A stretch of 64,000 nucleotides of DNA. It comes from Myxococcota bacterium. Its GTDB lineage: Bacteria > Myxococcota_A > UBA796 > CAJQPC01. Both the position numbers and the translations under genes were made by a program. The stretch is taken from contig DASCPX010000127.1 in the NCBI GenBank assembly GCA_036012755.1, positions 78,373 through 142,372 of the forward strand, read 5' to 3'. Shown in pieces: positions 44,921 through 58,242 of this stretch. A model generated the notes under the pieces. That model worked only from the letters and a program-made list of their open reading frames with translations. It did no database searches and was not told where the DNA came from. The number at the start of each line of letters is the position of its first letter. Positions within the stretch are counted from its first letter, which is position 1.

Positions 44921-45685
44921 TCAGGGTGTGAGCAGGTCTCCGGCCGCCAGCGGCACCCAGTACTTGCCGCCGTCGACCAGCACCGGAGCTTGGGACAGGC
45001 GGATCTCGTCACCGGACTCCAGCGCACAGAGGATCTCCTCTTCGGCGCTCCAGGAGTTGGCCTTGCGGGGATAGTCGGCCCTGACGTACTTGCCGAACTT
45101 CAGGGTGTAGACCTGTCCGATGTCGGCGTCGAAGGGGAAGCCCGCGTACCAGTAGCCGACGACGGTCCCCGTCGTCCCGCCGCAGCGTCCGTCCGTGATC
45201 GCAGGCGCCTCGAGGGCTGGCGGCTCGACGACGATCGGATCCTCCGCAACCTCTGGGGGCTGCGAGACAACGGGTTCCACCTGTGGGGACTTTGAGGCTT
45301 CCGGCATCTCCGGAGAGGGCGCCAGCGCCTGCGCCGGGACATCAGGCTGCCGCTTCTCGATGTGCTCGTCTGCCGTCCCGTACCAGGCCGCGGCCCCGAT
45401 CGCGATGACCAACAAGACGCCCCCGGCAGCGATCGCAGCCCGCAACGGCACGTTCGGGGGATCCAGGGTCTCGGCCAGCTGCGCCAGGTTCGGGTCCTTC
45501 GGACGCCTCGCGGCGGCAGCCTTCGCGAGGGCCGGCAGCCTGGCGCCGGCTGCCTGGATGGCCGAGGCCCACTCCGCGTCCTGGAGGCCGACATCAGCTA
45601 GGAGCGCGGCTCGCTCCTCGGGATCCGAGAAGCGCTTGGCGAAGAAGCTCACGAGTTCGTCGAGCTCGGCACGATCCAGGTGCAT
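44921..45685 (-). CDS. Single-pass membrane protein, possible EAD1-like N-terminal domain
   Basis: Helical N-terminus ending AAAARRPKDPNLAQL, one TM, a Pro-rich linker and a small beta C-domain. Confidence 0.6.
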   Translation of the reverse strand: MHLDRAELDELVSFFAKRFSDPEERAALLADVGLQDAEWASAIQAAGARLPALAKAAAARRPKDPNLAQLAETLDPPNVPLRAAIAAGGVLLVIAIGAAAWYGTADEHIEKRQPDVPAQALAPSPEMPEASKSPQVEPVVSQPPEVAEDPIVVEPPALEAPAITDGRCGGTTGTVVGYWYAGFPFDADIGQVYTLKFGKYVRADYPRKANSWSAEEEILCALESGDEIRLSQAPVLVDGGKYWVPLAAGDLLTP

Positions 45686-45739
45686 GCCGACCCTTACCCC
45701 AAAGTTGGGCTCGCGTCAGTTGCTGACTACGTTGTCGAC

Positions 45740-47755
45740 ATGCTCCTTGCGCTCCTCGCCTGCACGCCGAAGACCCCGATCGCCGATCCGAAGCTGAGTG
45801 CTCCTCCCGAGGGCCTCGACCACGCCCAGCTTCCGCTGGTCCGAGCCGCCCCCGGAGCAGCCAAGATCTACGTGGAGGCCACGCTGCCGGATGGAAGCAA
45901 GGGCATCTTCCTCGTCGACACGGGAGCGTCGGTGACGGCCATCGACCAGGAGGTCGCGGACCGCCTGGGCCTGGTGGTCGACGACCCGATGGGGGTGATC
46001 CAGGGCTTCGGCGGCCAGACGGCGTGGCGACGTTCGGAGCTCCCCTACGTCGAGCTCGGCGGCGTCATCGTGCCGAACATCGAGGTCGCGGTCGGCCTGC
46101 CGGGGGTGCCCGAGTACACCGGCGCCATAGAGGTCGACGGCATCTTCGGGAACAACGTCTGGAGCGACTTCGTGGTGGCCCTCGACTATCCGGCCGACCT
46201 GCTGGAGATCGGACGGCCAGGCACGATCGAAGTCCCCGCCACGGCGGTCCCCATGGTCTTCGACGGCAGCCACATCCACACGATCGTGCGCCTCGTCGCA
46301 GAGGGCGCGGATGGCGAGGAGATCGCTCGCGACCTGCTCCTGGAGGTCGACACCGGAGCCCGGAGGATCCTGCTGTCCGGCGCCACGGGGGACGGCCTCG
46401 GAGACATCGCGACAGAGGGAGAAGAGCCCATCTTCGGCCTCGGCGCGTCAGAGAAGATGCCGGTCTCGGCCTTCTACCGGCAGACCCGGCACGTGGACCT
46501 CGTTCGCGCCGAGCTGGGAGGTGTCTCCATCGACGACCCGGGCCACGCCACCTGGATCAACTACGACGCCAGCCTTCCTGTCGGCCCGGATCTGCTCGGA
46601 CTCGTCGGCCATCACGTCCTGGCGGACCACCGCGCTGTCTTCGACTACCCGAACGGTCGCTTCGCCCTCACCGAGTCGATCCACGAGCCTCGCCAGCTCG
46701 ACGGCCACCAGCTGATGCTGGACCGCGAGCTCGAGGACAACGGAGACGATCCCGACCGCGCGCTGCTGCGTGCCCGCTACCGCGCCGCCCTAGAGGACGT
46801 CGAGGGCGCGCTCGGCGAGGTCGACGTCTACCTCGGTGAGCACGCGGACGACCTCGACGCCACCGTGCTCCGCGCCAGGCTCCTCCGCTACGACGGCGAC
46901 CTCGCCGGCTACGCGGACATCGTCGCCGGCCTGGATCCCGGGGACCTCGTCGACCAGGGTGAGATCGTCGCCACGGTCAACGGGCTCCTGCTGGAAGACC
47001 GGAACCAGGACGCTGTCGACCTCGCCACCGCAGCCGTCGCCCTCCGTCCTGACGACTCCGCCGCTCATGTCGCCTCCGCCGACGCACTCCTGAACGTCGG
47101 GAACGCTGCTGGGGCACGAACCGCGATCGCCAACGCGGCGAGGCTCGAGGAGAACCCCGACGCCTACCTGAAGCGCCGAGCCCGCATCGCCCTCGCGGAA
47201 GAGGACGTCTTCGCGGCCCTCGCCCACCTCCGGACGCGCCTGGCGCTGTACCCCTCCGATGGCGAAGCCCTGTGGTTCTACGCGATGCTCGTCGCCGAGC
47301 GGGAGGAGTTGGACGCAGCTGCGACCTTCGAGCGAGACGCGGCGGCCGCGATGCGCCGACTCCACCGCGAGAGCCGCCCCCTCGACTTCCTGATGGCCTC
47401 GCTGGCCCTGGTGGGTGCGGACGTAGAAGGCCTCCACGACGAAGGCGTCGAGCGCGACTGCCAGCCGATAGAAGAGGGTCCCAGCCAGGACAACTGCCTC
47501 GCCTGGTACGCCGCGATGTCCGGTCTCCGTGACGACGACTCCCTCGCCCTCATCGAGTCAGCGGTCGCCGAAGAGGCCAACCGCAGCGACTTCCTCGACA
47601 CCCTGGCGATGGTCCACCTGGCCAGGGGAGAGCACCAGGAGGCTGCGGACGCGGCCCTCCTGGCGGCGCGCATCACGCCGGACCGCTTCTACCACCTCTG
47701 GCAGGCAGAGCGCATAGCTGCCCTCGCCGCGGGAGCCGCGGAGCCCACCGAGTAG
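45740..47755 (+). CDS. Lipoprotein with two retropepsin-like aspartyl protease domains + TPR-like region
   Basis: FLVDTGAS...DGIFG and EVDTGA...GLVG motifs, a helical repeat C-half and an MLLALLAC lipobox. Confidence 0.82.
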   Translation: MLLALLACTPKTPIADPKLSAPPEGLDHAQLPLVRAAPGAAKIYVEATLPDGSKGIFLVDTGASVTAIDQEVADRLGLVVDDPMGVIQGFGGQTAWRRSELPYVELGGVIVPNIEVAVGLPGVPEYTGAIEVDGIFGNNVWSDFVVALDYPADLLEIGRPGTIEVPATAVPMVFDGSHIHTIVRLVAEGADGEEIARDLLLEVDTGARRILLSGATGDGLGDIATEGEEPIFGLGASEKMPVSAFYRQTRHVDLVRAELGGVSIDDPGHATWINYDASLPVGPDLLGLVGHHVLADHRAVFDYPNGRFALTESIHEPRQLDGHQLMLDRELEDNGDDPDRALLRARYRAALEDVEGALGEVDVYLGEHADDLDATVLRARLLRYDGDLAGYADIVAGLDPGDLVDQGEIVATVNGLLLEDRNQDAVDLATAAVALRPDDSAAHVASADALLNVGNAAGARTAIANAARLEENPDAYLKRRARIALAEEDVFAALAHLRTRLALYPSDGEALWFYAMLVAEREELDAAATFERDAAAAMRRLHRESRPLDFLMASLALVGADVEGLHDEGVERDCQPIEEGPSQDNCLAWYAAMSGLRDDDSLALIESAVAEEANRSDFLDTLAMVHLARGEHQEAADAALLAARITPDRFYHLWQAERIAALAAGAAEPTE

Positions 47756-47758
47756 GCC

Positions 47759-48562
47759 TCAGGGAGTGGCCTTCTTCACGGCGTGCTCACGCCGATCGAC
47801 GATCTCGCCGAGAGGATCGAAGATGGTCGCGACGTCGGCCTTGTTGTTCCAGATGGGCTCCGGACTGCCCAGGTAGATGAGCAGCTGCGAGCCGGGATCG
47901 GTCTGGTGTTCTCCGACGCCGCTGTGGACCTCGACCGTGTGCCCGGCTGGCACCACCAGGTCCGGGAAGGTCCAGCTGTTGTCGCGGGCGTCGGTGATCC
48001 TGTAGCCCTCGACGTTCAGGGCCTCCGTGGTGATGTTGCAGACGCGCAGGTACTCGCCGTTGACGTTCTCGCGATCGTCTCCGGCGGCGTTGGCGTGGAA
48101 GGAGGTCATGTGCAGCGTGCTCTCGTAGCCCTCCGTCACCCAGATGCCGCGGTCGCTCTCGCGCGCCTCGGCCTGCGCCGCCAACAAGGCGTCCACGTCG
48201 CCGAGTCCGAGCGGAGGGATGAGGAAGACGTGAGCGACGCCGAGGGACACGAGGTAGTCCGCCAGCGGCTCCCCCTCGACCTCGACCCAGGCGATGAGGC
48301 GGCCGTAGGAGTCGCGCTCGAGAGAGCCGTAGGTCAGCGTCACGTCCTTGCCCTTGACGAAGCGCTCCGTGGCCACGCGGGCCTCGTCTCCGAAGACCTC
48401 CGCCGGCCGGAGCTCGGGGGTGTTCACGCCGGCTACGCGGACCTTGTCGCCGGTGTCGAGGGTGAAGGTGTCGCCATCGTAGACGCTGGAGACCGTGGCC
48501 TTGGTGGGGCCAGGACCGAACTCGTCTGCGAGGAGGGGAGAGATGAAGAGGGCGATGAGCAT
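47759..48562 (-). CDS. Secreted thermonuclease (SNase) + lamin-tail domain protein
   Basis: YDGDTF, VRVAGVNTPE and RDSYGRL; LTD motifs EYLRVCN and IWNNKAD. Confidence 0.88.
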   Translation of the reverse strand: MLIALFISPLLADEFGPGPTKATVSSVYDGDTFTLDTGDKVRVAGVNTPELRPAEVFGDEARVATERFVKGKDVTLTYGSLERDSYGRLIAWVEVEGEPLADYLVSLGVAHVFLIPPLGLGDVDALLAAQAEARESDRGIWVTEGYESTLHMTSFHANAAGDDRENVNGEYLRVCNITTEALNVEGYRITDARDNSWTFPDLVVPAGHTVEVHSGVGEHQTDPGSQLLIYLGSPEPIWNNKADVATIFDPLGEIVDRREHAVKKATP

Positions 48563-48570
48563 GGAGCCCG

Positions 48571-49347
48571 CTAACCCCCGCTCGGCCTGTTCGCTTCCGG
48601 ACGGGGGGGCTCGCAGAACATGCGGCGAAGCTGGCGCATGAGTGGCTTGAGCGATGTGTGGCGCACGACGCCGCAGGCATCCTGCACGGAGAACCACTGC
48701 ACCTCGCCGATCCCCTCGTCTTCTGCGGGACAGAAGCGCTCCGGCGGGCTGTCGACCTCGATGAGGTAGACATGCATCGACTTCAGTCGCGGCTCCCCCT
48801 CCGGCGTGTGGAAGCCGTATCGGACGACCCCCAGGTCGCAGCCGATGCGCAGCGGCGCCTCGAAACCCATCTCCTCCTGGAGCTCCCTGCATGCCGCCTG
48901 CTCGGGAGTCTCGCCGACCTCCAGCTTGCCCTTGGCGATCTCCCAGGTCGTGCCCCAGCGCCTCGTGCAGCTCACCAGCGCCAGCTCTACCTCGCCTCGG
49001 TCGCGGCGTACCAGGAAGCCACCCGCGCTGACCTGCTCGCGAAAGCCGTCCTTGAGGTTGAGCACGTGGCGGACGCCGATCCGTGGGGCCGTCCAGAGCC
49101 CGGAGCGGGTCCGCGAAAAGCGCGTGCCGGATCTGCGCGCCCGTCCGGCGTCGACGTAGAGCACGACAGGCCCTGCAGAGGAGCGGTGTGCGACCGCCCA
49201 GGCATCCGACTCGACGGCGGACAGGAAGACCCGCCGCCCGGGACCCGCGTCGAGGACGCCGGCGCGCCTGTACCGCTCCAGCCGCGAGACGTTGCTCGCG
49301 TGGTACAGGATGTCCGGGACGAAGTGGCGTCGACGACGACCGCTCAT
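48571..49347 (-). CDS. Tpt1/KptA C-terminal (NAD-binding) lobe fused to a Nudix hydrolase
   Basis: PDILYHAS...RRVFLS...AVAHR...PVVLYVDA...GTRF...GLW, then SAGG and the Nudix box KGKLEVGETPEQAACRELQEEMG. Confidence 0.78.
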   Translation of the reverse strand: MSGRRRRHFVPDILYHASNVSRLERYRRAGVLDAGPGRRVFLSAVESDAWAVAHRSSAGPVVLYVDAGRARRSGTRFSRTRSGLWTAPRIGVRHVLNLKDGFREQVSAGGFLVRRDRGEVELALVSCTRRWGTTWEIAKGKLEVGETPEQAACRELQEEMGFEAPLRIGCDLGVVRYGFHTPEGEPRLKSMHVYLIEVDSPPERFCPAEDEGIGEVQWFSVQDACGVVRHTSLKPLMRQLRRMFCEPPRPEANRPSGG

Positions 49348-50297
49348 TCGTGGATGATCGCACAGGGCCGCTCGGCGAAGTGGCGGTAGGCGCGCTCGGT
49401 GCCTTCGACCATGGCCTCTACCGAGAACTCCCGGGCCCGCGCTCGACCCGCCTCGATCGGGGGATGGGCTCCGGCGAGGGCTCCTCTCAGCGCGGTCCGA
49501 AGGGCATCGGGGTCCTCGGGAGGTACGAGCAAGCCCACCCCGGCGAGCACCTCTGGCAGCCCGCCGGCGGTGGTGGCGACGACCGGGACACCCGCGTGCA
49601 GCGCCTCCACGACCACCTGGCCGAGGCCCTCTTCCTTGCTCGGGTGAACGAAGACATCCGCGCGGGCGAACAGGGCCGCGACGTCATCACGCTGGCCAAG
49701 GAGCTCCAAGTGGCTGTGATCGTCCAGCGGTCCCTCGCCGGCGACGAGGACCCGGGCGTCCAAACCCCTGGCAGCCTCGTCCAGCGTGGCGTGGTCCTTG
49801 TGGTCGACGAGGGCGCCGACAGCGAGCACGATGCGGCCCTCGCCGAGCTCCGCTGGGGGCATCGGCGACAGGGGCTCCACGCCGTCGTGCACGACGACCA
49901 TGCGCTCCTCCGACACGACACCCGCCAGGATCCGCCTCACCGCATCGCTGACGCACACGTAGCCGAGGGCCCGCCCGTACTTGAAGCCACCGGAGACAGG
50001 GAAGTCGACTCGGCGATGCACGACCGGACGAGCGCCGGCGAGCACGCAGACCTGGTGAGCGTGAGAGGTGTGAGCGGCGAGCACGTCCCACTCCAGCTTG
50101 CGAAGCGAGAGCGCGCTCCGGGGGTCGGTCCCCGGGTAGGCCCGGACCTGCGGGAGGCCCAGCCGCGAGACCGGTGACCCCGGTACGCAGAGCAGCACCT
50201 GCTCGTGTCCGCGCCCGGCCAGCCCCCTGGTCAACAACTCCAGCTGGCGTTGACCACCCCGCCACTGCATCGAGGTGTCGACATGAACGATCTTCAC
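49344..50297 (-). CDS. Glycosyltransferase family 4
   Basis: WRGGQRQ, HRRVDF, KDH and PSKEEGLG...EA motifs. Confidence 0.88.
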   Translation of the reverse strand: MKIVHVDTSMQWRGGQRQLELLTRGLAGRGHEQVLLCVPGSPVSRLGLPQVRAYPGTDPRSALSLRKLEWDVLAAHTSHAHQVCVLAGARPVVHRRVDFPVSGGFKYGRALGYVCVSDAVRRILAGVVSEERMVVVHDGVEPLSPMPPAELGEGRIVLAVGALVDHKDHATLDEAARGLDARVLVAGEGPLDDHSHLELLGQRDDVAALFARADVFVHPSKEEGLGQVVVEALHAGVPVVATTAGGLPEVLAGVGLLVPPEDPDALRTALRGALAGAHPPIEAGRARAREFSVEAMVEGTERAYRHFAERPCAIIHE

Positions 50298-50443
50298 AGC
50301 TTGCGTGACTCTTCGGGTGCAAGCCGCGGGATCCCGTCGACCACCGGGTAGAGCCGCTTGCAGGGAGCGCAGGCGAGGCCCCCCGGCGCTGCCTTCAGCG
50401 GCCCCCGGCAGCGCGGACAGACCAGGATCTCCACCCACTTCAT
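50294..50443 (-). CDS. Trm112/YcaR-family zinc-ribbon protein (49 aa, absent from the ORF track)
   Basis: MKWVEILVCPRCRGPL...LACAPCKRLYPVVDGIPRL. Overlaps both neighbours (ATGA, GTGA). Confidence 0.85.
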   Translation of the reverse strand: MKWVEILVCPRCRGPLKAAPGGLACAPCKRLYPVVDGIPRLAPEESRKL

Positions 50444-51246
50444 CCGGGCACCCGCCAGCGGTCGTGTAGCCAGAGCCAGCCATGGGGTCGCTCACGGAGC
50501 CGTTCTTCGTACCAGCGAGTGAGGCGGGCCGTGTCGTCCTCTACATCACCGCTGAGCTCCAGCGGGCCGTAGAACCGCACCCGGTGACGCCCGGTGCCCT
50601 CCCGCCACTGCCAGCATCCAAAGACCGGGACGCCGGTCCGGGCGTGAGCCGCCGCGGCCGCCGGAGAGGTCCAGGCGGGCTGGCCGAAGAAGGGCACGGG
50701 GATGCCCTGGTTGCGCCGCTGGTCCATCACGAAGATGACCATGTGGCCAGCATCGAGGGCCTCGTAGGCGTGCCTCATCGAGCTGCCCGGCGGCAGGAGA
50801 TAGAGCCCGGCTTTGTCCCTGATGTCCGCGATCACGCGGGCGACCTCACCCTGAGCCGGCGGCTTCACGAAGACGGACAGCGGCACCTCCTGGCTCTTCG
50901 GAAAGGCGGCCATCGCGAGGTCCCAGGAGCCGGAGTGGGAGCCAATGACGAGGGTCCCCTCCCCCCGCGCGTGACGCTCGCGGATGGGGTCCACCCCCTC
51001 CCACTCGATGTGGACGGGGTCCCGAAAGTGCCGCAAGAGCTCCGTGTAGCCGAGGAGGATCTCGGCGACCGTGCGCCGCAGGGTCGGCCCGGGTGGCAGC
51101 TCGGGAAAGGCCCGGGAGAGGTTGGCCGCCGCGACGTTTCGTCGAATCGGAACCAGGAGCCACCAGATCCAGCTCAGCGCCCACGCACAGAGCCTCGCCA
51201 GTGGAAGCGGGATTCGGCCGAGGACCCAGGCGGCGGCTCGCGTCAC
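50440..51246 (-). CDS. lpxL: Lipid A late acyltransferase (LpxL/HtrB family)
   Basis: HSGSWD (HxxxD), DQ, VPFFG and WLWLHDRW motifs. Confidence 0.85.
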   Translation of the reverse strand: MTRAAAWVLGRIPLPLARLCAWALSWIWWLLVPIRRNVAAANLSRAFPELPPGPTLRRTVAEILLGYTELLRHFRDPVHIEWEGVDPIRERHARGEGTLVIGSHSGSWDLAMAAFPKSQEVPLSVFVKPPAQGEVARVIADIRDKAGLYLLPPGSSMRHAYEALDAGHMVIFVMDQRRNQGIPVPFFGQPAWTSPAAAAAHARTGVPVFGCWQWREGTGRHRVRFYGPLELSGDVEDDTARLTRWYEERLRERPHGWLWLHDRWRVPG

Positions 51247-53069
51247 GCGATCGCCCGCGTCTCGAAGAGAGCCTGGAGGCGCTCGCGGAGCACGCCCGCG
51301 CCGACGCTGACCTCGACGCGCAGCCCAACGACGTGAGCCTCCTCGCCGAAGCGCACCGCGTCCTTCTCTGTCGTGACGAGTGGATGCTCCGCCACTACCT
51401 CGCCAGGGCGGAAGCGGTGGTGGTCGGGAAAGGGACTCCAGCCGCGCACATCGACGCCGGCTTCCACCAGGGCCTCGAGGAAGCGACCCGGCCGGTGGAT
51501 GCCCGCGAAGGCATGGACAGGTCCCTCCGGCAGGCCCTCCAGGACGACCTCGGAGCTGATGTCGGCGGGCCCGCCCCCTCGCGTCGACCAGACGAGGTCT
51601 GCCTCGTGGAGCCCGCCCGGGCGAGCCTCGCCGACAGGAATGAGCCCGCCGGCCAGTGGGTGGACAGCGTCCACGACGAGGATGTCGAGGTCCTTGTCGA
51701 TGGGGCTGTGGAAGCCATCGTCGAGGACAACCACGTCGGCCCCCAGCGCCGCGGCCTCTGCGACGCCGGCGACGCGGTCGACCCTGGCGACCACGATGAC
51801 CTCTTCCCTCATCATCGTCAGCTCATCGCCGAGGTCGTCCGCGGCGCGACCGTAGCCCCGAGACACGACCGCTGGTGTGCGGCCCAGGGCCTTCAGCTCC
51901 GCCACGACTTGTCGGACGACCGGGGTCTTGCCGCTGCCGCCGCTGGCGAGGTTTCCGATCGAGATCACCGGCAGGGCAGCCCTGGGCCCACCGCGCTCCG
52001 AAGACCAGGCCGAATACAGGAGGGACAGCGGCCAGAGCCAGCGCCGATAGAGCTCCTCCGGGGGCGGCTCAGACCGCACCCGCTCGAGGACCGGCGCGAC
52101 GTCGATGACCGGTGGGATCGGCTCGAGCAGCCCCATCGCCATGGCCTGCGCGATGCCCTCCGCGAGGTCGGCCGCCTGGATGCAGCGGTCGTCGAAGAGC
52201 GAGGCATTCGCTGCGATCTCGGGCCCATGGACCACGGGCACACCAGCCGCGAGGGCCTCTGCGGGCGAGTGACCCCCGATGGCAGCGTCGAAGGTCCCGC
52301 CGACGAAGGCGACGTCTGCGGCTCGGTAGAAGCCAGCGAGCTGGCCCACCACGTCGAGCAGGTGGAAGCGCTCCCGGCCGTCGAGGAGATCGCGATCGAA
52401 GCGCTCCGGATGACGGGGGGCCAGGAGCAGGAAGGGCGGGTCCTCCATGCGGTCGAGGGCATCGAGCAGCCGCTCGGTGTCGCCCTCGCGCACGGACCCG
52501 GCGACGAGCAGCGGGCGCGGCAGCTGAAGCGGCGGCTCTGGCAGGACGGCGGCGAGCTTCAGCGCTCCGAGTCCGACGTCCTCGATGGCCGACAGCACTG
52601 CTGGCATCCACCGCCGCAGGCGGCGCGTCCCAGGACCCTCGCGAGCAGCGACCCGCAGCACCGGGATGGCTCGACCTCGGGCGGCCATCACCAGGTTCGG
52701 CCAGATCTCGGCCTCGACGAGCACCAGCGCAGAGGGCCGCAGGCGCCGCAACCACAGGTCCACGACCAGGGGGTGGTCGAGGGGCAGCGCGGCCAGCGCG
52801 TGGTGACCGACAGCGACTGGAAAGGCGGTGTCGCTGGTGGCCGTCCTCAGCAGCACCCTCCGAGCTGGACGCAGGGCCTCGAGCAGTGCTTGAGCCGCCC
52901 TGCCCTCGCCGACCGAGGCCGCGTGGACGACGATGGCTCCGGGCTCGACCCCTGGAAGCCGCAGCCCCCACCGCTCGGCCCAGCGCACGCGGGTGCGCGG
53001 GTGGAGCCAGGTCCCGACCAGCAACAGCGGCGTCGCCAGCCACCAACACAGCCGGTAGAGCCTCAGCAC
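51243..53069 (-). CDS. waaA-lpxK: Fused Kdo transferase (WaaA) and lipid A 4'-kinase (LpxK)
   Basis: N-half: HAASVGE, EAEIWPN, APRHPERF, GGHSPAE. C-half: IGNLASGGSGKTP, SRGYG, GDE, DDGFH, FPDHH, TTEKDAV. Confidence 0.88.
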   Translation of the reverse strand: MLRLYRLCWWLATPLLLVGTWLHPRTRVRWAERWGLRLPGVEPGAIVVHAASVGEGRAAQALLEALRPARRVLLRTATSDTAFPVAVGHHALAALPLDHPLVVDLWLRRLRPSALVLVEAEIWPNLVMAARGRAIPVLRVAAREGPGTRRLRRWMPAVLSAIEDVGLGALKLAAVLPEPPLQLPRPLLVAGSVREGDTERLLDALDRMEDPPFLLLAPRHPERFDRDLLDGRERFHLLDVVGQLAGFYRAADVAFVGGTFDAAIGGHSPAEALAAGVPVVHGPEIAANASLFDDRCIQAADLAEGIAQAMAMGLLEPIPPVIDVAPVLERVRSEPPPEELYRRWLWPLSLLYSAWSSERGGPRAALPVISIGNLASGGSGKTPVVRQVVAELKALGRTPAVVSRGYGRAADDLGDELTMMREEVIVVARVDRVAGVAEAAALGADVVVLDDGFHSPIDKDLDILVVDAVHPLAGGLIPVGEARPGGLHEADLVWSTRGGGPADISSEVVLEGLPEGPVHAFAGIHRPGRFLEALVEAGVDVRGWSPFPDHHRFRPGEVVAEHPLVTTEKDAVRFGEEAHVVGLRVEVSVGAGVLRERLQALFETRAIA

Positions 53070-53401
53070 AGATCCTCGATGTCCGGGTCCCAGCGAAAGC
53101 GCCTCATGGGGATGCGGTCCTCTATGAACTCGACCCCCTCCTCCTGGAGCAGCGCCCTCTGGAGATCGCCGCGGATGGGGTCCCCCGCAAAGGCGATGTG
53201 CCCGCTGGTGCGCACGACCCGCTGCCAGGGCACGACGACGCCTTCCTTGTCGATGCCTCCTTCGCAGAGCCCGGCCAGCGCCCAGCCCACCTGCCGCGCG
53301 GCTCCGGGAGAGCCGATGGCGGCGGCGACGTCGCCATAGGACAGGACCAGTCCCTCAGGGATGAGTCGGACGACCCGGTACACCTCGTCGTAGAAGCTCA
53401 G
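53063..53401 (-). CDS. Alkyltransferase-like (Atl/YbaZ) MGMT-family protein
   Basis: IPEG...SYGDVA...ARQVGWAL and PWQRVV (Trp replaces the catalytic Cys), LQEEGV. Start CTG 53401 or GTG 53383. Confidence 0.85.
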   Translation of the reverse strand: MSFYDEVYRVVRLIPEGLVLSYGDVAAAIGSPGAARQVGWALAGLCEGGIDKEGVVVPWQRVVRTSGHIAFAGDPIRGDLQRALLQEEGVEFIEDRIPMRRFRWDPDIEDLC

Positions 53402-55101
53402 AGGCGCCCCCCGTACAGGCGCCCGTAGGTGCCCTCGCCGACGAGGTCCTCGTGGCGACCCGCCTGGACGACACGGCCCTCGTCGAGGACCAGGATGACG
53501 TCCGCGTCCCGAATCGTGCTGAGGCGGTGAGCGATGGCGATGGTCGTGCGCCCCGCCTGCAGACGTCTCAGCGCAGCCTGAACCAGCTCCTCGTTCTCCC
53601 TGTCCAGGGCCGAGGTGGCCTCGTCGAGGACGAGGATGGGGGCGTCGAGCAGGAGCGCGCGAGCGATGCAGATGCGCTGCCGCTGCCCCCCGGACAGCCG
53701 CAGGCCAGCCTCCTCGAGGGCCGTGTCGTAGCCCGCTGGGAGCTCGCGTATGAAGGCGTCGGCCTCGGCGGCCACGCATGCCTCGACGACCTCTGCGAGG
53801 CTGGCGTCGGGACGCCCGAGGCGCACGTTGTCGAGCACGCTGGCGTCGAAGAGGAAGGGCTCCTGGCTCACGACGGCGACGTGTCGCCGCAGAGACGACA
53901 GGGTGTAGTCACAGAGCGCCCGTCCGTTGAGGAGGATCCGTCCCGCCGTGGGGTCGTGGAAGCGCGGGACGAGGCCAGCCAGGGTGCTCTTGCCGGCCCC
54001 GCTCGCACCGACGAGCGCCACCATCTCCCCAGCCTCGACGGCGAAGCGCACGCCCCGGAGCACCGGACCATCGCCGTAGTCGAAGCCCACGTCCTCGAAG
54101 ACGAGCCTGCACACCTCCGAGGACAGCGGCACGTCACCCTCGGGGACGGAGTCCTCGCAGTCGAGGACCTCGAAGACCCGCTGGGCTCCAGCGAGGGCGC
54201 GCTGTCCGAGGCTCACGATCTCGGAGAGCGACTTCAAGGGCTGGTTCATCAGGCCGAGGGCGACCAGGAAGGCGATGAGCTCGCCGGCCTGCAGCGTGCC
54301 TGCGAAGACCCGCTGCCCCCCCCACCACAGGACCAGGCCGACGCCGAGCGCCGCGACGAGCTCGATGACCGGACCGGGTAGGAGCTGGGCCAGGGTGCGC
54401 CGAAGGATGAGGCGGTACTGCTCCTCGTTGTCGACGTCGAAGGCCTCCAGACGCAGCTCCTCGGCGCGGAATGCCTGCACCGTGCGGATCCCCGTGAGGC
54501 TCTCCTGGGCCGTCCCCGTGAGCCCGGCGAGGTTGTCGAGAGAGTCCCTCGCCGCCGCCCGCAGGCGCCGTCCGAAGGCCGCGATCGGCCAGGCGATGAC
54601 AGGCAGGGCGATGATCGCCATGGTCGCCAGCCGCCAGTCCATCCAGAAAATGGAGGCCACCAGGAAGACGAGCGTCAGCGGCTTCTGGACGAGGGTGGCC
54701 CAGGCGCTCACGAGGTACTGGACCTGCCCGACGTCCTGGGTGAGCCAGGTGAGCCGCTCGCCGAGTGCCATCCGCTGGTGCCAGCCGGGCTTCAGCACGA
54801 GGAGGCGCTCGAAGAGCTGACGCCTGAGCCGCGTGACCACGGAGAAGGCGACGGACTTCGTGATCATCGCCCGGCCCACACCCACGGTCCCCGACAGCAG
54901 GTAGAGGCCGGCGACGGCGAAGGGCAGGACCGCAAGGGACGCGGCGTCGTGCTCGATGAGGACGCGGTCGAGCACCTGCTCGATCAACACCACCAGCGCC
55001 CCCGGGATGGCAGCCGCGAGGCCCATCATCACCGCGGCGAGGGCGAGCCGCCCGGCGTAAGGCCGGTAGTAGAGCAGCAGGCGGCGAAGGGTCGGACTCA
55101 T
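53398..55101 (-). CDS. msbA: Lipid A export ABC transporter
   Basis: Six-TM domain, GASGAGKS, LSGGQRQR and LDEATSALD motifs, in lipid A operon context. Confidence 0.88.
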   Translation of the reverse strand: MSPTLRRLLLYYRPYAGRLALAAVMMGLAAAIPGALVVLIEQVLDRVLIEHDAASLAVLPFAVAGLYLLSGTVGVGRAMITKSVAFSVVTRLRRQLFERLLVLKPGWHQRMALGERLTWLTQDVGQVQYLVSAWATLVQKPLTLVFLVASIFWMDWRLATMAIIALPVIAWPIAAFGRRLRAAARDSLDNLAGLTGTAQESLTGIRTVQAFRAEELRLEAFDVDNEEQYRLILRRTLAQLLPGPVIELVAALGVGLVLWWGGQRVFAGTLQAGELIAFLVALGLMNQPLKSLSEIVSLGQRALAGAQRVFEVLDCEDSVPEGDVPLSSEVCRLVFEDVGFDYGDGPVLRGVRFAVEAGEMVALVGASGAGKSTLAGLVPRFHDPTAGRILLNGRALCDYTLSSLRRHVAVVSQEPFLFDASVLDNVRLGRPDASLAEVVEACVAAEADAFIRELPAGYDTALEEAGLRLSGGQRQRICIARALLLDAPILVLDEATSALDRENEELVQAALRRLQAGRTTIAIAHRLSTIRDADVILVLDEGRVVQAGRHEDLVGEGTYGRLYGGRL

Positions 55102-56372
55102 CGGGGCTCCGAATCGTAGCCCTCCACCACGGCGACCTGCCACGTGCCGATGACACGCTCTCCATGGCGCGCGACGATGTCGTGGCTGCCGCTGCGCTCG
55201 GCGTAGAGCCCGTCGGTGGGCCAGGTGTCACCAGAGCGGCTCGGCCGAAGCACGACGGATCGCTCGGGGAGCCCGTCTCGCCAGAGGTCGAACTGGCTCT
55301 GTCGTCCGGCACCCGGCACGGTCGTGGCGTCGACGCCCCCGTAGAAGCGCACCCAGGCGGCCTCCTGGTAGCGCTCGCAGAGGACCGGCTCGAGACCCCA
55401 GGCGCCGGCGGACTCGCCCACCACCTCGCCCATCCGGAGCTGATCGACGGGGTCCTTCTGGAGGGGAAGGACCGAGAAACAGGCGTGGACCAGCACCACC
55501 GCGCTCAGCAGCAGGCCGATCGCTCCCCCCCACTCGGCGAAGTTGCGAGCGACGCCGTTGGTCCGAGAGGCCCCGACGACCGCCGCCATGCAGAAGGGCA
55601 GGCCCCAGTTCCCCTCCCCTCGTGACAGCAGCGAAGCGCCCCCGAACACACAGAGGGTCAGCACAGCCGACCACCACCAGCGATCCCGCGGCCCCCTGGC
55701 GATCCAGAAGGCCGCGGAGACCGGGACGAAGACACCCAGGAAGAAGACCTGCGCCCCAAGGAACTCGAGCAGGGGTCCGAGCCCACCGTCGCCGCGCCCG
55801 AGGCCGTGGTCGAGCTGGAAGAGCACGTGACCGGCCAGGCTCGGCGCCGCGAGGAGCATGGCCAGCCCGGCGCTCATCCAGGCCCGCCTGCTCCTGGGCT
55901 CTGCCAGCACGAGCGCCACCACCAGCAGGACCCCGGAGAGCTTGAACCACAGGGCAGCCCCGGCGAGGAGCCCGGCCAGCACCCAGCGCCCGCGCTCGGC
56001 CGCCACGATGGACAGCACCCAGAAGGCCAGGAGGCCCGCGTCCGGCGTCGCGAGCACAGAGGGCAGGACCACGCCGGGCACCGCGAGGCAGAGCAGCAGC
56101 GTGTGTCGTCGCCGCTCGTGCCAGAGGAGTGCCGACAGCGCCACTCCCTGCAGGACCAGCCCTCCGGCGCGGACTCCCAGCTCCGAGTCCCCGAGCACGG
56201 TGGTCCCGGCCCGAATCAGCCAGGCGACGCCCGCGGGGTGGTCGAAGTAGGAGATCCCGAGCGCCTCGCTCCAGGTCCAGTAGTAGGCCTCGTCAGCCGC
56301 CAGGCCGAGCCGGGCCGCGATGACGAGCCGGAGACCAGTGACCACCCAGACAGCCGCGATCCCCCACTTCAC
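55098..56372 (-). CDS. ArnT/PMT-type (GT-C) membrane glycosyltransferase
   Basis: DEAYYWTWS, YFDHP and TPD motifs, with many TMs. Confidence 0.8.
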   Translation of the reverse strand: MKWGIAAVWVVTGLRLVIAARLGLAADEAYYWTWSEALGISYFDHPAGVAWLIRAGTTVLGDSELGVRAGGLVLQGVALSALLWHERRRHTLLLCLAVPGVVLPSVLATPDAGLLAFWVLSIVAAERGRWVLAGLLAGAALWFKLSGVLLVVALVLAEPRSRRAWMSAGLAMLLAAPSLAGHVLFQLDHGLGRGDGGLGPLLEFLGAQVFFLGVFVPVSAAFWIARGPRDRWWWSAVLTLCVFGGASLLSRGEGNWGLPFCMAAVVGASRTNGVARNFAEWGGAIGLLLSAVVLVHACFSVLPLQKDPVDQLRMGEVVGESAGAWGLEPVLCERYQEAAWVRFYGGVDATTVPGAGRQSQFDLWRDGLPERSVVLRPSRSGDTWPTDGLYAERSGSHDIVARHGERVIGTWQVAVVEGYDSEPR

Positions 56373-57391
56373 GCCAGGTGCTCGGCGACGAAGCTGGCGA
56401 TGCGCGCAGTCGCGCCGGGCCCCTCCAGGAGCGCCCGCACCTCCTCCAGGTCCGCCAACTGCCGCTCCGAACCCTCCAGGGCGGCGACAAGGTCAGCAGG
56501 TCCGAAGTCCTGCAGGAGCTCCGGAACGGCCCTGCGCCCCAGCACCAGGTTCGGGAGGGCCATGTGCTCGACACCGGTGACGAGCAGCTTGCCGATACCA
56601 TAGGTCAGAGGGTTCACCCGGTAGCAGACGACCATCGGCCGCCCGAGGCAGGCGAGCTCCAAGGTGGCGGTGCCGCTGGCGGTCAAGGCAGCCTTCGCCC
56701 CGGTGGCGGCGCTGGAGATGTCCTCGACGATCTCGATCCCCGGCAGGGCCGGCAGCTCGATGCCCGCGGCCCGTGGCAGCCGGGTGACGAGACCGGTCTG
56801 GCGGGCCGCCTCGACGAGGTCGTCCAGCAGGCGATCGACCTCCGACTTCCGCGAGCCGGGGAGGATGGCCAGGTCCTGCCCGAGGGGGCCTGCGTGCTCG
56901 ATCCGCTCGGCCACCGGGTGACCGAAGAACAGCGCCCTGCCGCCGTGCCGTTCATAGAAGGCAGGCTCGAAGGGGAGCAGGCAGATGACGGCCTCCGCGA
57001 TCTCCGCGATCTCCTTGGCCCGACCCTTGCGCCACGCCCAGACCTGGGGCGAGACATAGAACACCACGTCCACGCCTCGCTCGCGTGCCTTTCGCGCCAG
57101 CGGGATGTTGAAGTCGGGGGCGTCCACGACCACCAGGAGCGACGTCCCCGGAAGGCGGGCCACGAGCTCCTCGCGAATGCGCAGCGCGTCGGGGATGACG
57201 CCGATGACCTCGACCAGTCCCATCACGCCGAGGCGCTCTGCGTCGGCTATGGCCTCCACACCAGCCGCGCGCATGGCAGGGCCCGCCAGGCCGTAGGCCT
57301 CGATCTCGAGGTGCTCGCCCAGCGCGACCACGAGCTCGGCCGCCAGTTCGTCCCCGCTCGGCTCGGCGGCGGAGATCATCAGACGCCTCAT
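56369..57391 (-). CDS. lpxB: Lipid A disaccharide synthase
   Basis: EPSGD, DAPDFN, YVSPQVWAWR, LPFE, GHP, LPGSR and SGTATLE motifs. Confidence 0.93.
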   Translation of the reverse strand: MRRLMISAAEPSGDELAAELVVALGEHLEIEAYGLAGPAMRAAGVEAIADAERLGVMGLVEVIGVIPDALRIREELVARLPGTSLLVVVDAPDFNIPLARKARERGVDVVFYVSPQVWAWRKGRAKEIAEIAEAVICLLPFEPAFYERHGGRALFFGHPVAERIEHAGPLGQDLAILPGSRKSEVDRLLDDLVEAARQTGLVTRLPRAAGIELPALPGIEIVEDISSAATGAKAALTASGTATLELACLGRPMVVCYRVNPLTYGIGKLLVTGVEHMALPNLVLGRRAVPELLQDFGPADLVAALEGSERQLADLEEVRALLEGPGATARIASFVAEHLA

Positions 57392-58242
57392 CGGCGTCTT
57401 TCGATGGCCTCTGCGATGCGGTCGGCGAGCGCTACGGCCACGGCGGCCTCCTTCGCAGGACAGGGGTAGTCCCCCTCGCCGCGAACAGCTGCGAAGAACG
57501 CGGCGTGCATGGCTTCGAGGGCGTCACCCTCTGCCACATCGAGCTTCTCCGGCGACAGCGAGCCCTCACCCCACCGCACCCGGGATCCAGTCCCGCCCTG
57601 AAGGTCCAGGCTCCAGTAGCGGCCCTCGTCCATCAGCCGGAAGCGCCGGCTCGAACCCCGCGAGATGCGGCTCGCCGTGAGCGTGGCCACGCACCCGGTC
57701 GAGGTCTCGAGCCAGACCTCTGCGACGTCGACGCCGGCGGTGACAACTGGGACTCCGACCGCGCGCAGCTCCGTGACCGTCCCACCCGCGAGGTGGAGCA
57801 AGAGGTCCAGGTCGTGGATCATCAGGTCGTGCACGACATCGACGTCCACGCCCCGGGCGCTCGGGGCAGCCAGCCGCTCCACGCGGATGTAGCGGGGCCG
57901 CGTGTCGTCGGGCAGCGCGAGCACTGCCGGGTTGAAGCGCTCCTGGTGGTTGACGCTGCAGGCGCGGTACCGCGCGAGGAGCGCTGCGTCCCGACCCGTC
58001 GAGGCCAGCGGCTTCTCCACGAGGCAGGGGACTCCCCGCTCCAAGAGCGGGATCGCGACCTCTGCGTGGGCGCTCGCCGGAACAGCCACGATGGCCGCGT
58101 CCAGCTCGCGGGGGACCTCTTCCGCGGCAGGCAGCCCTTCGGGCACACCCGCCGGGTCCACGACGACGAGCTCGACGGTGCCGAGCAGCTTCTGGGCGTG
58201 AATGCGACCCATGTGGCCGCAGCCGACGACTGCCACGCGCAT
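57388..58242 (-). CDS. Gfo/Idh/MocA oxidoreductase, GnnA-like
   Basis: GCGHMG, EKP, ERFNP, DVDVVHDLMIHDLD and TASRIS motifs. Lies between lpxA and lpxB. Confidence 0.8.
   Translation of the reverse strand: MRVAVVGCGHMGRIHAQKLLGTVELVVVDPAGVPEGLPAAEEVPRELDAAIVAVPASAHAEVAIPLLERGVPCLVEKPLASTGRDAALLARYRACSVNHQERFNPAVLALPDDTRPRYIRVERLAAPSARGVDVDVVHDLMIHDLDLLLHLAGGTVTELRAVGVPVVTAGVDVAEVWLETSTGCVATLTASRISRGSSRRFRLMDEGRYWSLDLQGGTGSRVRWGEGSLSPEKLDVAEGDALEAMHAAFFAAVRGEGDYPCPAKEAAVAVALADRIAEAIERRR

Follow-up and report, generated by a model that had tools for sequence, protein, structure and literature searches.

A Nudix domain of the Ap4A-hydrolase type joined to the NAD lobe of Tpt1 in one order of Myxococcota

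In Tpt1/KptA, an RNA lobe and an NAD lobe are closed upon each other by a GHS linker which contacts Arg121 and His125 (PMC8464070). NAD+ binds only to the C-lobe of the Runella enzyme, with an affinity that depends mainly on the ADP moiety, and the double exchange N163A-V165A is lethal (PMC8464070). Within the pocket, His101, Thr103 and Arg139 bind the adenosine ribose and the phosphates of NAD+, and His125 binds the NMN ribose (for His125, PMC10622864). The role of Tpt1 in bacteria without 2'-phosphate RNA is an open question (PMC10622864; PMC8120803).

The Nudix enzyme aq_158 hydrolyses Ap4A–Ap6A and, in vitro, converts ppp-, pp-, m7G-, Ap4-, NAD-, FAD- and sugar-capped RNA to 5'-monophosphate RNA; the same source describes Nudix specificity as hard to predict from sequence (PMC13145063). 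The residues by which Ap4A hydrolases bind the P1-phosphate and the base have been described as well (PMC4734340). An earlier note on the DNA studied here had not recognised the combination of a Tpt1 lobe with a Nudix domain as characterised. The pairing as such is in print for a Bodo saltans virus protein, whose Nudix domain was suggested to process ADP-ribose products (PMC9503650), and that viral fusion is itself uncharacterised. No paper on the bacterial Tpt1-Nudix family or its lobe-less form was found in the open literature searched, although this architecture may be among those listed in the supplements of PMC9503650; in public annotations, some long members already bear the name Tpt1/MutT fusion.

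Locus and domain architecture

The fusion gene lies in a stretch of 64,000 nucleotides of a Myxococcota contig (DASCPX010000127.1), referred to as the window, in which the following features were located:

48571..49347, minus strand: Tpt1 NAD-lobe/Nudix fusion gene, 258 aa (ORF; single copy in 57/61 related genomes)
49321..49347, minus strand: Arg-rich N-terminal arm, residues 1–9, occupying the place of the Tpt1 GHS linker (sequence and charge count)
49054..49320, minus strand: Tpt1/KptA NAD lobe (ART fold), residues 10–98 (profile, fold and alignment matches)
48610..49044, minus strand: Nudix domain of the aq_158/Ndx1/CT771 Ap4A-hydrolase type, residues 102–246 (profile and fold matches)
48862..48930, minus strand: Nudix box, G140–F162 (sequence and family alignment)
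49344..49347, minus strand: ATGA, fusion start codon overlapping the stop of the upstream GT4 glycosyltransferase gene
47759..48562, minus strand: downstream gene with SNase and lamin-tail domains, starting 8 nt past the fusion stop
49344..58242, minus strand: upstream LPS/lipid A gene run (Pfam)

The start of the fusion gene is fixed because its ATG overlaps the glycosyltransferase stop, and the protein begins right at the lobe boundary because residue 86 is the first of the NAD lobe in Clostridium Tpt1 (PMC6333775). An RNA-lobe profile found zero matches in the six-frame ORFs of the source genome (96% complete), in which neither PF01885 nor the Tpt1 or RNA-lobe profiles detected a second Tpt1 part. 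The ATGA overlap and the empty RNA-lobe search rule out a mis-called start or a split gene and bear out the absence of the RNA lobe stated in the earlier note. A search for shorter forms gave 18 matches, the seven best of which read as pieces cut from the fusion family, and no clear example of a standalone lobe. The GC content of the gene is similar to that of the remainder of the window, and a promoter and terminator scan of the locus gave no signal above chance.

Residues ~10–95 had been read as a KptA C-lobe pattern, and the named motifs are indeed present (LYHAS 14–18, RRVFLS 38–43, PVVLYVDA 60–67, GTRF 74–77 and SGLW 82–85). Pfam PTS_2-RNA (PF01885) aligns residues 10–87 with positions 99–175 only of its 177 (E 8e-4), at 19.9 bits against a gathering cut-off of 26, and the NCBIfam KptA models, run on residues 1–101 alone, match residues 11–95 (E 1.8e-7 to 4.3e-4), likewise under their cut-offs. 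The AlphaFold2 model of the protein, built from a 111-sequence alignment, reaches a pLDDT of 95.3 and a pTM of 0.88. Compared with 48,161 solved chains, a fold comparison of the kind the earlier note had suggested, residues 6–98 superpose on residues 86–179 of the Tpt1 chain 9LD3_A (Z 13.6, rmsd 2.4, 92 aligned), identifying an ART/Tpt1 fold, and the lobe matches a Tpt1 structure cluster with a TM of 0.89. A lobe-only HMMER search (91-residue query, unfiltered) returned 52 matches; among the 46 new ones scanned against Pfam, 45 carry NUDIX, PTS_2-RNA or both and one is a repeat protein. The lobe search also found P0180, a 376-aa protein combining a shikimate-kinase-like P-loop domain with a full Tpt1.

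The Nudix domain is recognised by PF00293 over residues 105–229 (E 8e-16; 58.7 bits vs a cut-off of 21.1). Its Nudix box is intact (G140-x5-E146-x7-R154-E-L-Q-E158-E159-M-G161-F, with Phe in the last position), as the earlier note had observed, and the box residues G140, E146, R154, E155, E158, E159 and G161 are invariant in all 65 genome copies, which comprise 56 from a search of the order, eight from a sample of the phylum and the window's own. Also invariant in these copies are Q105, R129, W135, E136, K139, K189 and E211, while Y177 is found in 62 (Phe in the other three) and H230 in 63. The likeness to Ap4A hydrolases proposed in that note is confirmed by fold: against solved chains, residues 104–246 match the Ap6A/Ap4A hydrolases Ndx1 (Z 17.4) and CT771 (Z 16.4), and Foldseek ranks aq_158 first (3I7U, E 5e-11; ~26% identity), with CT771 and MutT1 also among the top solved folds. 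Bdellovibrio RppH (3EES) scores as well as aq_158 in a single-sequence search, and the NCBIfam models for RppH (18.5–24.4 vs 116–259 bits), NudC (16.5 vs 158) and MutT (36.5 vs 97.9) stay under their cut-offs. The conserved residues K139, Y177, K189, H230 and S232, aligned via aq_158 with human K42, Y82, K89, F128 and E130, would by this mapping occupy phosphate- and base-binding positions.

A profile of standalone Nudix genes, made from eight of 29 matches in other orders of the phylum, hits aq_158 at 1.6e-32 (next best 4e-16) and, in the source genome, the fusion gene first (2.5e-18 vs 1.3e-10). Of the 61 order genomes, 55 were matched, 53 of them once and two of them twice, and the match is the fusion gene wherever coordinates were compared, two genomes aside; in genome G024 another gene scores slightly better. 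The fused Nudix domain therefore seems to represent the aq_158-like gene in this order, and its type favours Ap4A and RNA 5' ends over free ADP-ribose. Models of RppH and ApaH had no match in the 61 order genomes at E 1e-15 (controls: 3/14 and 1/14), an absence that is probably common outside Proteobacteria. In the source genome, searches for YqeK, RNase J and DUF952 gave no match, and NudC stayed below its cut-off; the genome does encode RNase E/G, RtcB, a Macro domain and nine further Nudix genes, of which we take two to be MutT-like and two NudF-like from motif typing. Any RNA-directed role could be filled by these other Nudix genes.

The two domains were also predicted as separate chains (residues 8–99 and 100–247, own alignment; ADP-ribose was included but unscored). 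Their score of 0.82, against 0.00 for the best of three controls, passes a mark reached by 116 of 157 solved complexes and two of 215 mismatched pairs, and halves of the same gene tend to pass it. The runs agree in at least 93% of contacts, with partner pLDDT of at least 90. The predicted interface joins lobe residues 9–13, 64–69 and 96–99 to Nudix residues 102, 175–178, 186–188 and 231–235, that is, on the Nudix side, to the Y177–K189 hairpin and the H230 helix. Contacts are made by P11, D12, D66, R69, L96 and N97 with Y177, G178, P186-R187-L188 and S232, named residues that are mostly invariant in the family and are not shared by standalone Tpt1 and Nudix proteins. Conservation reaches at least 80% of copies at 13 of 24 interface residues, and the mean frequency of the top residue is 0.74 at the interface, 0.70 in the pocket and 0.58 and 0.62 in the two domains. 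The lobe is therewith predicted to dock rigidly on the hairpin of the Nudix nucleoside pocket; among the solved-structure matches listed, none holds both domains in one structure.

Distribution, residue changes and lobe loss across the order

A protein search identified 146 relatives among 2254 candidates; the 120 listed are 47–100% identical and 187–371 aa long, and those with a name carry the label Myxococcota. When 61 genomes of this order were searched with a profile, 57 gave exactly one match, and all seven sampled families were represented (f1–f7, the window belonging to f1). Across 251 genomes sampled evenly from the phylum, both domains were matched in 34 of the 36 order genomes and in 0 of the 215 outside, 29 of which matched one domain only. 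A one-protein search of genome contigs gave three loci, including two true relatives labelled Myxococcota, and a search of viral contigs found no relative of the fusion. The fusion is a core single-copy gene of one Myxococcota order and not an island. An additional, intact Tpt1 accompanies it in about 27 of 151 order genomes (E < 1e-31).

Copies were classed as long or short by a 10-bit cut with an RNA-lobe profile built from standalone Tpt1. By this measure the RNA lobe is present upstream in 33 of the 65 genome copies (22 with the RH motif, 11 without), in which it is often decayed, and absent from 32. Families f2 and f7 are entirely long and f3 is long in 15 of 16 copies; f4, f5 and f6 are entirely short, and f1 is short in 17 of 20. 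In a tree of the shared part, which is unrooted and contains two long f6 branches of unsure place, six changes between long and short are required, five of them forced by well-supported branches, and a single origin of the short form as one clade was rejected (p-AU 3e-5). Because the two lobes share a single Tpt1 ancestor, the changes are read as losses, and the short form would have arisen as copies of a full Tpt1-Nudix fusion repeatedly lost the RNA lobe. Living members of the order would preserve the steps from the full fusion to the lobe-only form; the family constitutes a natural deletion series (full, decayed and lobe-less, with repeated losses) in which the role of each Tpt1 lobe is directly testable.

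The residues of the Tpt1 reaction were followed through these copies and 27 standalone Tpt1 proteins, 26 from the order and one from outside; 27 of 29 standalone loci passed a pattern requiring RH, GH[ST] and HG[TS], so these columns, and no others, are invariant by construction. The strict Arg-His-Arg-Arg tetrad (Cth R18, H19, R68 and R121) is present in all 27 standalone proteins, in 0/33 long and in 0/32 short genome copies. The GHS linker is found in none of the 65 copies and Lys66 in none of the 33 long ones; His occupies the His125 position in 3/33 long and 1/32 short copies, and Asn163 is kept in nine of 65. In the window copy, Arg18, His19, Arg68, Lys66 and the GHS linker are missing, G37 stands in the Arg121 column with R38 one position later, and F41 replaces the His of the HLS motif. 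A looser form of the tetrad, in which R-H and R are kept and the fourth Arg is in place or one position away, occurs in five of the 33 long copies from genomes and in 16 of 44 long proteins from databases, suggesting that some long forms may retain activity. Transferase chemistry has probably been lost in the window copy and in most of the family.

Residues of the adenosine side of the pocket fared differently. His101 of the His-x-Thr motif has its equivalent, H16, in 24/33 long and 30/32 short copies (53/65 in a separate count), Thr103 is kept in 17/33 and 23/32, and the Arg139 equivalent, R55, in 31/33 and 32/32. The window copy retains H16, S18, R38 and R55 and carries the adenosine-ribose motif as H16-A17-S18, with Ser in the Thr103 place. 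When five lenient pocket features are scored (H16, T/S/C18, R/K38, an aromatic residue at 41, and R55; chosen after the alignment was seen), 32 of 32 short copies keep four or five. Three or fewer remain in 14 of the 22 long copies with RH, all but few of them in f2 and f7, and decay to this level affects all eight f2 copies and six of seven f7 copies. The short forms probably still have an ADP-binding pocket; its decay in f2 and f7, two families that retain the RNA lobe, makes the pocket dispensable there, so that binding of a ligand is not essential to the family as a whole.

Outside the pocket, the lobe shows invariant residues of its own (P11-D12, E46, W50, H54, R69, R72 and N97), and R55 is the only Tpt1 pocket residue among the 18 lobe positions conserved in at least 90% of copies. 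E46 (60/65), W50 (65/65) and H54 (63/65) line one helix face (window region 49186–49212), are not pocket residues, lie outside the predicted interface and could form a dimer, partner or ligand site. Furthermore, where Tpt1 has an acidic linker, the fusion family has a basic arm. A net charge of at least +3 in the 15 positions before the PD motif was counted in 30/32 short copies, 22/33 long copies and 0/27 standalone Tpt1, a count in which related copies are not independent and some positions may lie upstream of the real start codon; from random translation of these loci, 9.4 of the 32 short copies would be expected, against the 30 observed.

The genomic surroundings were surveyed for gene clusters within about 5 kb of 64 loci, with 23 representatives scanned of 45 clusters listed. 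In the window, the upstream LPS/lipid A run comprises an oxidoreductase, lpxB, PMT-like, msbA-like and alkyltransferase-like genes, a kdtA-lpxK fusion, lpxL and GT4. The gene with SNase and lamin-tail domains recurs in 34/64 loci and an aspartyl protease-TPR gene (45680–47755, plus strand, in the window) in 33/64, in f1, f3 and some of f5 and f6. lpxL adjoins the fusion gene in 15 of 19 f1 loci and in no other family, and a functional link to LPS synthesis was rejected on the ground that this synteny is confined to f1. Upstream of the gene, f2, f4 and f5 have ileS and unnamed genes. In f2, the family with the most decayed NAD pocket, nadB (L-aspartate oxidase) directly follows in 8/8 loci (e.g., L056:3266–4918, minus strand); a link to NAD synthesis was likewise discarded, this adjacency being found in f2 only and nadB of the source genome lying on another contig. 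No recurring RNA-repair, RNA-decay, defence or toxin-antitoxin partner was found in the 64 loci within ~5 kb, and a defence, toxin-antitoxin or RNA-repair island was rejected for want of such neighbours and given a GC content like that of the window. To the RNA role preferred below, these surroundings lend no support.

Several neighbouring genes were noted in their own right. Two ORFs of locus L086 (2961–3839 and 3856–4980, plus strand) lie between ileS and the fusion gene with no NCBIfam match; the first is also without a Pfam match and recurs in 19 loci of f2, f4, f5, f6 and f7. In the window, 51243–53069 (minus strand) is a 608-aa ORF with Kdo-transferase (PF04413) and LpxK (PF02606) domains, 53063–53524 (minus strand) an alkyltransferase-like DNA-binding gene (PF01035) within the LPS run, and 44921–45685 (minus strand) a 254-aa ORF with a weakly EAD1-like N-terminus, whose L071 homologue scores above the EAD1 cut-off.

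Candidate functions of the fusion protein

The reading we prefer, and to which we would give an even chance, is that an Ap4A-type Nudix enzyme acts on Ap4A and RNA 5' ends while a disarmed, docked Tpt1 lobe binds an adenine nucleotide and tunes the choice of substrates. An ancestor of the order would have fused a whole Tpt1 to its aq_158-like Nudix gene. The transferase chemistry would have been lost early, as the positions of the GHS linker, Lys66, His125 and Asn163 are changed in long and short forms alike, and the RNA lobe would later have decayed or dropped out several times while the Arg-rich arm stayed, likely as a grip on RNA, a polyanion or polyphosphate. The Mg-dependent Nudix site would perform the chemistry, splitting Ap4A into ATP and AMP, and its product 5'-monophosphate RNA would become a substrate for RNase E/G. 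The lobe likely binds the ADP part of NAD+, ADP-ribose or a cap, thereby selecting or tuning substrates. The earlier note had proposed a reader-eraser or a writer-eraser for ADP-ribose- or NAD-modified molecules; the reader-eraser stays plausible on the pattern of ADP-binding residues in 32/32 short copies. A bolder version, which we regard as unlikely, makes the protein a metabolite-gated decapping and Ap4A enzyme, in which NAD+ or ADP-ribose sensed by the lobe sets the rate of RNA 5'-end deprotection and Ap4A turnover throughout the order; in this version, the NAD pocket of a disarmed tRNA-splicing-type transferase would have been kept as an allosteric sensor, held tight against the substrate lid of the Nudix domain. 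A lobe that senses NAD+ or ADP-ribose would represent a new mode of RNA-decay regulation; a purely structural lobe would be a lineage-specific accessory domain on an ordinary hydrolase.

Such a structural role is the least improbable of the rivals, if still a minority prospect. Here, the Nudix activity is the same and the lobe is a cap or a protein/RNA docking surface on the hairpin that binds no nucleotide. The pockets of f2 and f7 have decayed while the interface residues stay, R55 is the sole pocket residue among the most conserved lobe positions, and the E46/W50/H54 patch lies beyond both pocket and predicted interface, all of which would suit this role; the short copies tell against it, since they do not form one clade and all 32 nevertheless keep four or five of the five pocket features, with H16 in 30 and R55 in 32. 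We consider it distinctly improbable that the lobe is an active ART-fold NAD+ glycohydrolase or small-molecule transferase whose product ADP-ribose the Nudix domain cleaves to AMP and ribose 5-phosphate. This would agree with the NAD+ glycohydrolase activity of archaeal Tpt1 (PMC10622864), with the existence of lobe-only ART-fold proteins of the DUF952/CC0527 kind (PMC8120803), with the nadB gene after the fusion in the eight f2 loci, with an Atlas cluster named DUF952/NUDIX (0.85, a lead only) and with language-model features, uncalibrated for protein parts, which place the lobe on its own close to small viral proteins and an Arr cluster (0.92–0.94). However, other residues stand at the two positions that contact the NMN half, His125 and Asn163, the Nudix domain is not of the ADP-ribose pyrophosphatase type, the nadB link is limited to the one family with the most decayed pocket, and there is no toxin-antitoxin or defence context. 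The source genome, moreover, already holds a Macro domain and two presumably NudF-like genes, as typed by motif.

The writer-eraser part of the earlier proposal is not supported for the window copy, in which three of the four essential Tpt1 residues belonged to the missing lobe, the fourth, an Arg, is displaced by one, and neither the GHS linker nor the His of HLS is left. It would have the lobe ADP-ribosylate 5'-phosphate RNA or DNA ends or 2'-phosphates, with the Nudix domain removing the mark or producing the 5'-monophosphate acceptor, and with the task of the RNA lobe taken over by the basic arm or by the Nudix domain. Tpt1 does cap 5'-phosphate ends (PMC6182162; PMC10622864), aq_158-type enzymes do produce them (PMC13145063), and the lenient tetrad persists in the long copies counted above. 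Yet a writer is unlikely because no copy keeps the strict tetrad or the GHS linker; the RNA lobe, furthermore, recognises the acceptor phosphate in both 2'- and 5'-transfer (PMC12678800), and the separate intact Tpt1 that accompanies the fusion in some genomes suggests different jobs. We accordingly rate the writer-eraser among the faintest prospects, and on a par with it the reading of the fusion as a scavenger of ADPR>p. This was proposed for the viral KptA-Nudix fusion (PMC9503650), and a Tpt1 lobe co-purifies with ADP-ribose-1''-phosphate; its 1''-phosphate, however, is held by residues of the RNA lobe (PMC6333775), which is absent here, and neither the source genome (96% complete) nor most genomes of the order contain another Tpt1 as a source of the product.

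Comparison with known systems

Proteins joining a Tpt1 lobe to Nudix have been met elsewhere. The Bodo saltans virus tRNA 2'-phosphotransferase/Ap4A hydrolase (A0A2H4UTN1; PMC9503650) has the same domain pair and is the top match among predicted viral structures (E 2.5e-13), but it shares only 16% identity, superposes with an rmsd of 13.8 and shows a different predicted domain arrangement, and we infer that the viral and the bacterial fusions arose independently. The BFVD entries A0A3G5AJ65 and A0A3G5A8T0 (Sylvanvirus and Hyperionvirus, both named Tpt1) also match the model, and more giant-virus Tpt1-Nudix fusions may exist. The lobe-only ART proteins of the DUF952/CC0527 group resemble the fusion in their lone KptA-like NAD lobe, and one ESM Atlas cluster joins DUF952 to Nudix; the nearest sequence relatives of the fusion lobe are, in contrast, Tpt1 and not DUF952, and PF06108 (DUF952) has no match in the fusion protein at E 0.1 and none in the source genome. 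A Tpt1 lobe with an aq_158-type Nudix domain is thus near-universal in one order and occurs again in a giant virus, with the DUF952-Nudix cluster as a possible third case, and the recurrence suggests that the two domains meet at RNA 5' ends and adenine dinucleotides.

With Tpt1/KptA (PF01885; PDB 6E3A, 8TFI, 9LD3 and 7KW8) the fusion shares the fold of the NAD lobe, the His of HGT, a Ser or Thr at the Thr position and the Arg139 equivalent, and its long relatives still carry the winged-helix RNA lobe. It differs in that the short form lacks the RNA lobe, the GHS linker, Lys66, His125 and Asn163, in the displacement of Arg121 by one position, and in its new invariant surface residues and the added Nudix domain. 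The nearest fold and profile are those of aq_158, an Ap4A hydrolase and Omnivore RNA pyrophosphatase (3I7U; PMC13145063), together with Ndx1, CT771, NUDT2 and MutT1, with which it shares an intact box. It is unlike aq_158 in having WEIAKGK where W.(L/F)PKG stands, in an identity of ~26%, and in the additional ART-fold lobe that is predicted to cover the Y177–K189 hairpin. The fusion protein is not a member of Tpt1/KptA; it is a member of the Nudix superfamily which most likely works like aq_158.
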